In this document: one piece after another, positions 33,041 through 37,738 of the stretch
How the letters are laid out: the number at the start of each line of letters is the position of its first letter
How positions within the stretch are numbered: position 1 is the first letter of the stretch
Assembly: GCA_964534625.1 (NCBI GenBank)
Contig: CAZHRF010000029.1
Coordinates: 1-41,333 of the forward strand
Origin: an uncultured archaeon
GTDB taxonomy: Archaea > Asgardarchaeota > Heimdallarchaeia > Heimdallarchaeales > Heimdallarchaeaceae
DNA: 41,333 nt
Reading direction: 5' to 3'
Notes under the pieces: model-generated
The model's input: only the letters and a program-made list of their open reading frames with translations
Database searches by the model: none
What the model was told of the DNA's origin: nothing
Made by a program: the position numbers and the translations under genes

Positions 33041-33181
33041 CTATCTGTATTTATAATGTGGATTTAATCGCTCACAATTTGGACAGTATTCATCATCTCT
33101 TGTTAAGATCGTTCTACATCCAGTACATTTGAAGGTTTCGTCATAATTGCTTTTATCTTTATGCAATTGATGTTCATTCAT
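33041..33181 (-). CDS. Small zinc-ribbon protein (46 aa), absent from the ORF track
   Basis: MNEHQLHKDKSNYDETFKCTGCRTILTRDDEYCPNCERLNPHYKYR*; CxxC-x10-CPxC. Confidence 0.75.
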   Translation of the reverse strand: MNEHQLHKDKSNYDETFKCTGCRTILTRDDEYCPNCERLNPHYKYR

Positions 33182-33239
33182 TTGTATACTATGTTAGAAA
33201 ACACTAATTTAACTATTTTGTATAGGTAAAATTTTTTAC

Positions 33240-33421
33240 TTAACTAGTTTCTTGAAAGTCCTGAGGGATGTAGAATCCTCGAAGAGTTTGGAGTATCTAT
33301 CGTACGTACTGTCGGGACGACAGGAACTACAGACGACGCTTGTGCAGAAGAGATCAGTCCTCCTTTCGAGGCTACTTCGATGAAGCAAGAACCCATCTGC
33401 CTGTAGGCAGTGGTAGTTCAT
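33240..33421 (+). mobile_element. Non-autonomous IS200/IS605 miniature (PATE-like), lacking tnpA and tnpB
   Basis: GC-rich island. TTAC target at 33236-33239; AAAG at +16..+19; left hairpin 33263-33280; right end GAAC-ccatctgcctgtaggcagtgg-tagTTCA(T). Confidence 0.8.
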
Positions 33422-33437
33422 CATAAAATAATTTCCT
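33306..33437 (+). ncRNA. TnpB omega-RNA (reRNA) scaffold plus putative flanking guide
   Basis: tactgtcgggacgacaggaa...acgcttgtgcagaagag.tcagtcct...ggctacttcgatgaagcaagaa-hairpin-tagttca follows the typical IS605 right-end RNA layout. Boundaries are approximate. Confidence 0.7.
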
Positions 33438-33542
33438 ACAAGACAAAATTTCTTGTGTACTAGGAATTTATTACTTCAATTTCAAAATCCTTATTTATCT
33501 TTCAAGTGTAGAAATATAAAAAGTATATATGAGGTTTTTAAT

Positions 33543-35066
33543 ATGGAAAAACTAAAAATTAAACTTGAACCTTCATTAAACAAAAAAAGCAATTATGCAC
33601 TTATTAATGCAGATTATGCTCACAAATATAATTTATTACCTGGAGAATTAATTGAACTAACTCCTTATAACATTGGCTTAAAAGTATTTACTAGTGACTC
33701 TTATCCAGAAGAACACATTGGAATATCAAAAAATACTATTGATGAATCTGGTATGAAAGTTGGTGAGAAGGTTTCTATTAAACAGATTATAAATGAGGAT
33801 ATTATTCATTTATTGCATAAAAAAATGCGTTCAGAATCTTTAAAAGAAGAAGAACTTAACTTGATTTTTTCTGCTATTGATAAAAACTTAATGCATCCAC
33901 CCCAAATTGCGGTTTTGATGTCATTATTTCAAGTTGTTGGGATGTCTCATAGTGAAACGACTTCAATGGCAAAAGCTATTTTAAACACATCTAGAACCCT
34001 TACTATTAAGAGATCCCCTGTTGTGGATAAACATTCTATTGGTGGCATTGCTGGGAATAGGATCACCCCCATTATGATCCCTATAATTGCTGCTTCGGGA
34101 TTAGCAATTCCCAAAATATCAACACGAGCGATCACCTCACCTGCAGGTACTATTGATACAGCAGAATTATACATGCCTTGTGACTTAACTTTGTCTGAGA
34201 TGTCTGAAATTGTTGAAAATACGGGAGGATGTATTGTATCTGGAAAAAACGTAGGGATAGCTGATGTTTCCGATAAAATCATATCTGTTGTAAAAAACAT
34301 TAAAATTGATCCCAGAGAATTCATGATTGCAAGCATTTTAGCTAAAAAAATAGCAGCAGGAAGTAAATATGTATTAATAGATCTTCCAACAGGTAAAACA
34401 GCAAAATTAATAGGAAGAGATGAAGCCCATGAAGTCGGGAGTCTTTTTACATCAATAGGGTACTCCCTTAAACTAAAATTGGATTGTATAATCAGTCCAG
34501 GGGACAGGCCAATAGGTACAATGATCGGTCCTGCATTAGAAGCTAAGGATTGTTTGACCATTTTAAAGAATGAAGGTGGAAGTACAGATTTACGTTCAAA
34601 AGCACTATCACTTGCGGGTATTATTTTAGAGAGTCAAAATTGGTGCCCCAGAGGATATGGATATGAATATGCACAAGATGTATTAACCAGCGGAAAAGCA
34701 TATGAAAAATTCAAGGAAATTGTCGATAAACAAGGGGGAGATAAAAATATACGCGTAGATGACTTACCGACAGCAAGTGAAATAGTCACAATTAATTCGG
34801 AATCAAACGGAGTAATCTACGGAATTGACAGTGGTAATATTACTACTTTAGCTAGACAAGCTGGAGCGCCTATTGACAAAACTGCAGGAATAAAAATATT
34901 AGTTAACCGGGGAGATAAAATCAAGAAAGATGACCCATTATTTGAAATTCATTCTACATCCTCATCAAGGCTCTCTTCAGCAGTAGAACTAGCCAACCGT
35001 GATTTCAATCCAATTCATATGGAAAAAATGGTCCTTGAGGTTATACGAGGACCTAAAGAGCTATAA
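33543..35066 (+). CDS. AMP phosphorylase (thymidine phosphorylase family, archaeal type)
   Basis: N-terminal extra domain; DKHSIGGIAGNRIT, PKISTRAITSPAGTID, ASILAKK, IGPALEA, AGAP.DK.AG; gagg SD before ATG 33543. Confidence 0.92.
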   Translation: MEKLKIKLEPSLNKKSNYALINADYAHKYNLLPGELIELTPYNIGLKVFTSDSYPEEHIGISKNTIDESGMKVGEKVSIKQIINEDIIHLLHKKMRSESLKEEELNLIFSAIDKNLMHPPQIAVLMSLFQVVGMSHSETTSMAKAILNTSRTLTIKRSPVVDKHSIGGIAGNRITPIMIPIIAASGLAIPKISTRAITSPAGTIDTAELYMPCDLTLSEMSEIVENTGGCIVSGKNVGIADVSDKIISVVKNIKIDPREFMIASILAKKIAAGSKYVLIDLPTGKTAKLIGRDEAHEVGSLFTSIGYSLKLKLDCIISPGDRPIGTMIGPALEAKDCLTILKNEGGSTDLRSKALSLAGIILESQNWCPRGYGYEYAQDVLTSGKAYEKFKEIVDKQGGDKNIRVDDLPTASEIVTINSESNGVIYGIDSGNITTLARQAGAPIDKTAGIKILVNRGDKIKKDDPLFEIHSTSSSRLSSAVELANRDFNPIHMEKMVLEVIRGPKEL

Positions 35067-36757: not shown

Positions 36758-37738
36758 TCATTTATAAGGGGGATACATACCTGTTTCAATTAAGCTAGAA
36801 GCTAAACAAATTCCCTTTTGTAAGGATTCCTCAATTGAGAACGAGAGAAGGTAGGAAGAAATAAAACCAGCATTAAAACAATCACCAGCCCCAACAAAAG
36901 AGACTTTTTTCTTTAATTGGTGAGTAGGCACAGTGAACTTTTTATCAGCATAATACGACACTTCTTTGGATGTATGATATATAATAGGAATTTGGTATAA
37001 TTCATAAAATTCAGCAATATTACAATTATTAAAACCAAGTAAAGTTTTTAATTCAAATTCATTAACAGAAAGAAAGCGATCTCCTTTTAAGCGAGATAAT
37101 TTTAAAAGAAATTGAAGAAACTCACCTAATCTTGTAAAACTAGTAATATCACAAGGGTCGATGAATATAATGCCTTCATATTTATAATCAGCTATCAAAT
37201 CTAATTTTTTCTTGAAATTTATTTTAGTATCATAAATTACCGAATTAGAAGGGAAAATGATCCCCAAAAGCAATGCACTAAACCATTCTATTGAATACGC
37301 ATTTAAAGCGATGTTTGATATGGGTTTAAGCATACTTGTAGCATATTTTGATATGATTTCTTTATCAAGTATTTCGGGTTTTAAAGGGCATTTTAAGGAG
37401 TTAAATTGTATTTCACCTTGGTGCATGTTCAATATGGCAGTATAGTTTACAGATGCATCTTTGATTGGATAAATTTTTACTTGACTACAATTTTTCTTTA
37501 CCAGTAACTCAAAAAGTGGGGATGATGGACCAACGAATCCGATATCATGACCCAATCCAGATAATGCTCTAACGACATTAAAACCATTACCTCCCGGTAT
37601 TAATTCGATTTCCGTATTTGTATGATGTGCACCAAATTCAGGTAGTTTTTCAATGAGTTTTGTTGTGTTAGTTACCGGTTTGATGTTTATATCAATAAAA
37701 CTGTTATCAAAACCACCATATAGCATTTTCAATCCCAC
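36758..37738 (-). CDS. PfkB/ribokinase-family carbohydrate kinase
   Basis: PGGNGFNV..ALSGLG, SVNEFE, VGAGDCFNAGF. Confidence 0.88.
   Translation of the reverse strand: MGLKMLYGGFDNSFIDINIKPVTNTTKLIEKLPEFGAHHTNTEIELIPGGNGFNVVRALSGLGHDIGFVGPSSPLFELLVKKNCSQVKIYPIKDASVNYTAILNMHQGEIQFNSLKCPLKPEILDKEIISKYATSMLKPISNIALNAYSIEWFSALLLGIIFPSNSVIYDTKINFKKKLDLIADYKYEGIIFIDPCDITSFTRLGEFLQFLLKLSRLKGDRFLSVNEFELKTLLGFNNCNIAEFYELYQIPIIYHTSKEVSYYADKKFTVPTHQLKKKVSFVGAGDCFNAGFISSYLLSFSIEESLQKGICLASSLIETGMYPPYK

Follow-up and report, generated by a model that had tools for sequence, protein, structure and literature searches.

What is the short GC-rich island that lies between two divergent genes of an uncultured Heimdallarchaeaceae archaeon, and what can it still do? 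We addressed this question in the window, by which we mean the whole 41,333-nt stretch of DNA that was analyzed, and in the genome assembly to which it belongs. A sequence-only reading had described the island as a protein-less IS200/IS605 element with an omega-RNA interior that TnpA could move. Our analysis explains positions 33240-33421, with good confidence, as what an internal deletion left of an IS608-like insertion sequence of the IS200/IS605 family that carried only tnpB.

The locus and its parts

The element is 182 nt long and has a GC content of 48 to 52%, compared with 21 to 30% in the flanks. An AMP-phosphorylase-like gene follows on the same strand; its start codon, at 33543, lies 121 nt past the right end of the element (about 120 nt had been claimed), and the open reading frame (33543-35066) has the three-domain makeup of nucleoside/AMP phosphorylases. 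On the upstream side, the neighbor is a 46-aa Cys-rich ORF (33041-33181, minus strand), for which we obtained no Pfam match and, in an exact-protein look-up, no record. This ORF is probably a genuine gene for a small zinc-binding protein. It is conserved at the DNA level in related genera, where the divergent pairing with the phosphorylase gene is kept. A scan for tRNAs and tmRNA returned none. The parts of the element and its flanks are as follows.

33235-33239, plus strand: TTTAC, insertion target (left cleavage site TTAC, 33236-33239) and predicted TnpB TAM, outside the element
33240-33263, plus strand: left-end stub, 24 nt, with a 15-nt spacer (33240-33254), the guide AAAG (33255-33258), and then tcctg
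33261-33421, plus strand: tnpB 3′ remnant and right end, together the omega-RNA scaffold module, 161 nt
33263-33280, plus strand: stem-loop GAGGGAT / GTAGA / ATCCTC, first stem of the retained module
33309-33323, plus strand: scaffold hairpin CTGTCG-GGA-CGACAG
33339-33389, plus strand: long-range helix of CUUGU (33339-33343) with GCAAG (33385-33389), from the RNAalifold consensus
33347-33378, plus strand: stems enclosed by the long-range helix, GAAG/CUUC (33347-33350 with 33375-33378) and CCUC/GAGG (33359-33362 with 33368-33371)
33389-33392, plus strand: right guide tetranucleotide GAAC (family consensus GAAA)
33393-33413, plus strand: right subterminal imperfect palindrome CCATCTGCC-TGTA-GGCAGTGG, present in all copies
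33414-33421, plus strand: right-end tail TAGTTCAT, with the right cleavage site TCAT at 33418-33421
33422-33441, plus strand: flank and prospective omega-RNA guide CATAAAATAATTTCCTACAA, predicted from its position past the right end

The TTAC, 15-nt spacer, AAAG, GAAC, right hairpin, and TTCAT end thus lie where the sequence-only reading had placed them. TTTAC was taken as the target because the left flanks of the family read TTTAY and the full elements of a sister genus are also preceded by TTTAC. The tcctg that follows AAAG represents the opening bases of the lost left hairpin.

Related copies in the host genome

We searched the host assembly (3.37 Mb in 120 contigs, 89.8% complete) with blastn and recovered ∼26 related copies, with E values down to 5e-47. 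In the alignment of these 26 copies, similarity breaks off exactly after TTCAT / GGTAGTTCAT, and the right end was therefore set at 33421. The copies fall into three sets, namely, five linked to tnpB, 13 protein-less copies of ∼395 bp, and a remainder of contig-end fragments or diverged sequences. The tnpB-linked copies (C16, C4, C64, C69, and C97) match the window copy over all 161 nt that start at 33261. In them, this sequence runs on directly from the tnpB zinc-ribbon domain, the Pfam match to PF07282 ending 5 nt before the homology. The 161-nt module is 85% identical to the zinc-ribbon continuation at C16 and C4, and by tblastn the window copy still matches TnpB residues 197-244. The 13 members of the ∼395-bp family have a complete left end and have their last 117 to 120 nt in common with the window copy. 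The two share the scaffold and right end, the TTTAY target, and the logic of the AAAR guide, but the window copy derives from the tnpB-linked variant, with homology that reaches to −161 into tnpB coding sequence, and it has no left palindrome.

Several variants of these ends were also observed. A right end with a 31-nt insertion in the inner scaffold stem loop occurs at C64:346-540 (plus strand), C113, and C25; since these sit on copies that break contigs, they may be the most recently active. A second right-end/omega-RNA variant, with a ∼45-nt insertion, was found by the covariance model described below and missed by blastn (C30:34237-34399, C7:61981-62143, and C31:2387-2548, plus strand), and it is joined to a second tnpB lineage (C30, C7, and C27) that is broken by stops or frameshifts. 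Another miniature, of ∼190 nt, at C14:41854-42040 (minus strand) begins with TTAC, 14 nt, and AAAG, followed by a diverged scaffold that has no first hairpin; it ends in GTAGTTTAT and has the motif ttcttgAAAGtNctg in common with the left stub in the window. Finally, at least 12 copies of a ∼47-nt single-hairpin element were identified, in which TTTAY, 13 to 15 nt, AAAR, and one hairpin are followed by TAGTTCAT. They lie at C2:61243-61294(−), C2:42304-42355(−), C3:129042-129093(+), C7:31517-31568(+), C25:11810-11861(−), C27:31961-32010(+), C30:6468-6540(−), C31:14884-14933(−), C32:5261-5311(+), C38:2370-2421(+), C51:10798-10845(+), and C76:7876-7926(+). This element, which is REP-like in look, combines the left-end guide and the right-end tail on one common palindrome, and the omega-RNA scaffold is absent. 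The ∼47-nt copies may either transpose as such or come from repeated deletion between two palindromes.

The left end is a 24-nt stub

In IS608, left cleavage occurs at a TTAC that precedes the foot of the left palindrome by 19 nt, with the guide AAAG, and right cleavage occurs at TCAA, with the guide GAAT (PMC3201880, PMC5934647). The window copy has the same left geometry, with 19 nt from TTAC to the expected foot of the left hairpin and AAAG at +16 to +19, as the sequence-only reading had recognized. The guide pairing rule established for IS608 (PMC5934647) was applied to the family. Flank and guide covary, TTAC occurring with AAAG and TTAT with AAAA; the 395-bp and full elements follow this pattern, as do 10 of the 12 single-hairpin copies.

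Only 24 nt of the window copy (33240-33263) match the left ends of the family, with 21 of 24 positions shared with the left end at C38:2375 and 18 of 24 with that of the miniature at C30:3280, and homology to the 3′ part of tnpB holds from 33261 on. The canonical left palindrome, CCCYGTCC-TTGA-GGGCGGGG, which is the TnpA binding site, is absent after 33263. The hairpin after AAAG had been taken for the left transposon end, a reading that its tnpB 3′ homology overturns. As a stand-in for the left palindrome it was ruled out on three grounds, namely, homology to tnpB coding sequence, a start 4 nt past AAAG rather than directly at it, and a lack of resemblance to either the left or the right palindromes of the family. 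This stem-loop (33263-33280) is conserved in the tnpB-linked copies, where C64 has AAGGAT/ATCCTT, and in the 395-bp family a similar loop, TGTAGAG, recurs on another stem (CCGA/TCGG); the stem-loop therefore belongs to the RNA module. We found the junction between left stub and scaffold at no other locus in the host genome, and this single-copy junction indicates that the element is most likely a remnant of deletion in place and not a proliferating miniature.

The right end carries a copy-specific mismatch

At the right end, the palindrome and the TCAT terminus are intact, and the window pair GAAC/TCAT contains one mismatch, C-T, at the pair adjoining the cleavage point. The other aligned same-family copies of the host genome have GAAA with TCAT (C36 and C6, which are diverged or carry indels, were left out of this scoring), and the mismatch is therefore specific to the window copy. 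It had been noted from the sequence, together with the suggestion that it might immobilize the element, and both points agree with our results in that the mismatch is real against the family consensus and the element is probably immobile. By analogy with IS608 work, the C-T mismatch would impair cleavage. In sister genera, the right guide GAAT is paired with a TCAA end, so that guide and cleavage site covary at this end too, as GAAT-TCAA in the sister genera versus GAAA-TCAT in the host genome. Variants of the right palindrome keep their pairing, an example being CCATCC...GGGTGG at C6. The loop of the right hairpin is TTTA in most copies and TGTA in the window copy. The TGTAG said to occur in both hairpins is indeed present, but it is probably incidental, and we rejected it as a meaningful feature given that TTTA predominates in the right loop.

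Related genera lack the insert

In three genomes of a related genus of the same family, the same divergent gene pair is separated by a spacer of 253-262 bp vs. 455-479 bp with the insert present. Alignment with this genus showed one clean gap, between TTTAC and CATAAAAT (CATAAA), with no target duplication, and the empty-site junction can be written TTTAC|CATAAAATAA in this cross-genus, rather than same-species, comparison. The TTAC-junction empty site that the sequence-only reading anticipated in relatives is thus seen in related genera, which are without the ∼182-nt insert. Two Logan contigs (SRR7048219 and SRR7048222), located by the exact AMP-phosphorylase-like protein, both carry the occupied allele at 100% identity; no same-species empty site was found in those two metagenome runs. 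The sequence near the phosphorylase promoter that is conserved with relatives lies downstream of the insert, and we therefore would not expect the insert to have a strong effect on the phosphorylase gene.

The retained module has the covarying fold of an omega-RNA

We aligned 15 sequences for folding. Besides the window copy, the set comprised tnpB-linked and gene-less copies from the host genome as well as six ends linked to genes in other Asgard MAGs. The consensus structure has four parts, which are the hairpin at 33309-33323, the long-range helix, the stems nested inside it, and the right palindrome. Over the 24 pairs of this structure, 96.9% of cells form standard pairs, compared to 28 to 54% when the partners are slid by one to three columns. 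Cells changed on both sides numbered 26, versus 8.0 ± 2.1 in shuffled alignments, and none of 500 shuffles reached 26. Pair counts on the RNAalifold consensus gave seven pairs with changes on both sides, with three pairs of this type in the inner stem, and the hairpin at 33309-33323 shows compensatory changes from CG to UA and the reverse, as well as AU and GC, among the 15 sequences. Several conserved G-U pairs exist on the plus strand only, consistent with transcription of the RNA in the same direction as tnpB. A single-sequence fold was no better than shuffled sequence on either strand, and the structure claim is accordingly carried entirely by covariation.

A covariance model built solely from seven foreign gene-linked ends matches the window once, at 33303-33421 (plus strand), over the full length of the model (69.8 bits, E = 1e-15). 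In the host genome, this model finds 24 places, among which the window copy scores as well as copies that are still gene linked, and every consensus helix of the scaffold is still intact in the window copy. Rfam gave nothing relevant, either at gathering thresholds over the whole window or at E values up to 10 over 33100-33560; the covariance-model match proposed beforehand was thus obtained with a model made from foreign ends and not with those of Rfam. Together with the ∼26 copies and the tnpB-linked ends, this match upholds the description of the island as a protein-less IS200/IS605 element with an omega-RNA interior.

Parent elements and the missing transposase

The parent left end in the host genome spans ∼125 nt, in which TTTAT, 15 nt, and AAAA are followed by the hairpin CCCCGTCC-TTGA-GGGCGGGG and then the tnpB start codon. 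Because the left end abuts this start codon directly, the full elements of the host genome are tnpB-only. A full-length tnpB lies beside a window-type right end at C16:37084-38353 (plus strand); this gene is a pseudogene, interrupted by a stop codon in frame after ...SKTKSGK and by a frameshift near 37714. The tnpB genes at C4, C69, and C97 are truncated. Eight contig ends enter the left end or the 5′ part of tnpB (C57, C74, C37, C99, C112, C41, C76, and C13) and six enter the right end (C64, C72, C101, C113, C70, and C25). With 14 contig ends inside this IS family, several near-identical tnpB-only copies were probably collapsed or left unassembled, and the assembly probably underestimates both the number and the intactness of IS copies. 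The six to eight copies that end contigs are what suggests that an intact TnpB partner exists.

No Y1 tnpA was detected in the host assembly, either with Pfam PF01797 or by tblastn with the TnpA of a sister genus (best E, 0.19); as the assembly is only 89.8% complete, this does not prove its absence from the genome. The sister genus has a complete element of 1.8 kb, with TTTAC, AAAG and the hairpin CCATGTCC-TTGA-GGGCATGG, a Y1 tnpA of 140 aa, and a tnpB of 423 aa, after which the 3′ part reads ...GAAT, the hairpin CCACCGCC-TTTA-GGCAGTGG, and TAGTTCAA. Among solved structures, the TnpB of this element hits that of ISDra2 (E = 8e-62), and the matches for its TnpA are the TnpA proteins of ISDra2, Sulfolobus, and IS608. 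Relatives with tnpA and tnpB and the same end design occur in other Asgard MAGs. The expected neighbors of such ends were therefore found, as tnpB in the host genome and as tnpA plus tnpB in sister Asgard genomes, and the full tnpA/tnpB parent that had been foreseen exists in sister genera but not in the host assembly, where tnpA was not found and the resolved tnpB genes are broken.

Origin and fate of the element

We propose that a parent element inserted 3′ of TTTAC between the two divergent genes. A later deletion would have fused left-end position +24 to sequence that begins 161 nt short of the right end, probably through microhomology at CTG. This event would have taken away the left hairpin and nearly all of tnpB but spared the omega-RNA scaffold, which is complete, along with the right hairpin and the terminal TTCAT. 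The deletion model, which is an inference, requires one additional substitution at the junction (AAAGc to AAAGt). With the left palindrome absent, a C-T mismatch in the right pair, and tnpA undetected in the assembly, excision and copying by Y1 transposase appear to have been lost, and from its sequence the element is probably no longer mobile.

The movable, non-autonomous element that the sequence-only reading envisaged would be a miniature of the PATE or MITE kind, excised and inserted by Y1 TnpA in trans. We consider this quite unlikely. The TTTAC flank, the 19-nt spacing, and AAAG are correct, the right hairpin and TTCAT are intact, and the many protein-less relatives at different sites point to past TnpA activity; yet the left subterminal palindrome bound by TnpA is gone, the right mismatch is found in this copy alone among the aligned same-family copies, the junction is single-copy, and searches of the assembly, which is 89.8% complete, turned up no Y1 transposase. 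That the element transposed as a mini-element whose siblings were later lost is conceivable in the strict sense. A different reading makes the island a structured RNA of the host or a 5′ regulatory leader of the AMP phosphorylase gene, with no transposon origin, as its position as a folded GC-rich island 121 nt upstream of the gene and on the same strand might suggest. To this we give practically no credence: its ∼26 copies lie at unrelated loci, some fused to tnpB, a distribution that refutes it, the same spacer in related genera is without the island, and neither Rfam nor the single-sequence fold (z = −0.73) lends it support.

For the deletion remnant itself, the question is whether its RNA is of any use. 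A plus-strand transcript, if made, would be an orphan omega-RNA carrying the guide CATAAAATAATTTCC..., with TTTAC as the TAM, and this guide could direct a cognate TnpB, made from another locus of the genome, to cut the allele with the empty site, TTTAC|CATAAAAT. We found no second target of the 16- to 20-nt guide in the host genome (searched with 16 nt and up to one mismatch); the predicted guide fits only the empty-site allele of its own locus, which follows the homing and retention logic described for TnpB with its omega-RNA (PMC10055086). Such use of the orphan omega-RNA by TnpB is possible, although we lean against it. The chances are about even that the remnant is an inert, decaying relic that was never a usable RNA and leaves its neighbors unaffected. 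Its 85% identity to the nearest relatives indicates that the event was not recent, the tnpB mRNA context and the internal tnpB promoter region are gone from it, the resolved cognate tnpB genes are broken, and the genome offers the guide no second target. Less easily squared with inertness are the intact state of all consensus scaffold helices, the full-length model match with a score on par with those of gene-linked copies, and the several near-identical tnpB copies that probably exist where the assembly breaks.

Relation to known elements

The element resembles IS608 (Helicobacter pylori) and ISDra2, the "peel and paste" elements of the IS200/IS605 group with Y1 TnpA, in its insertion 3′ of TTAC, its AAAG at +16 to +19, and its 19-nt spacing. 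As in IS608, the right guide lies 5′ of the subterminal palindrome, and the sister-genus elements have exactly the IS608 pair GAAT/TCAA. In contrast to these systems, the window copy lacks both genes and a left palindrome, the family uses GAAA/TCAT (GAAC in the window copy), and tnpB is the sole gene of the full elements in the host genome.

PATE-like elements, such as the PATEs of Haloquadratum walsbyi (PMC3119063) and those of Geobacillus stearothermophilus (Meers et al., PMC10055086), are likewise gene-less and keep their ends and the omega-RNA scaffold; the omega-RNAs that they often encode depend on use in trans (PMC10055086), and the scaffold in the window would similarly need a TnpB encoded elsewhere. 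Unlike PATEs, the window element is shorter (182 nt), has a 24-nt left stub without a palindrome, and is single-copy, and it is better called a deletion remnant. The module is like the TnpB omega-RNA of OMEGA systems (ISDra2 type) in its origin from the tnpB 3′ end and the right end and in its covarying scaffold of several helices, and also in that the prospective guide is the DNA past the right end and the TAM is the transposon target motif. It differs in being unattached to tnpB and covered by no Rfam model.

Significance

Protein-less IS605 elements with omega-RNAs have already been published, and the present case opens no new mechanism. We think it very unlikely that the remnant has become an immobilized, domesticated guide-RNA gene, fixed between two promoters, which would be transcribed from AT-rich sequence upstream of it and whose product would serve a TnpB made elsewhere; if this were true, a domesticated guide RNA would police the locus against loss or act on the AMP phosphorylase promoter region, and an Asgard archaeon would have moved a step closer to RNA-guided regulation of the TldR type. 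As a deletion remnant, the element adds a well-delimited case of a stand-alone omega-RNA module in the Asgard archaea (Heimdall group), and its family supplies natural covariation evidence, at both ends, for the IS608 guide/cleavage rule in archaea. For annotation, it means that a GC-rich island upstream of a metabolic gene is, in this instance, transposon debris and not a new RNA or a regulatory leader.
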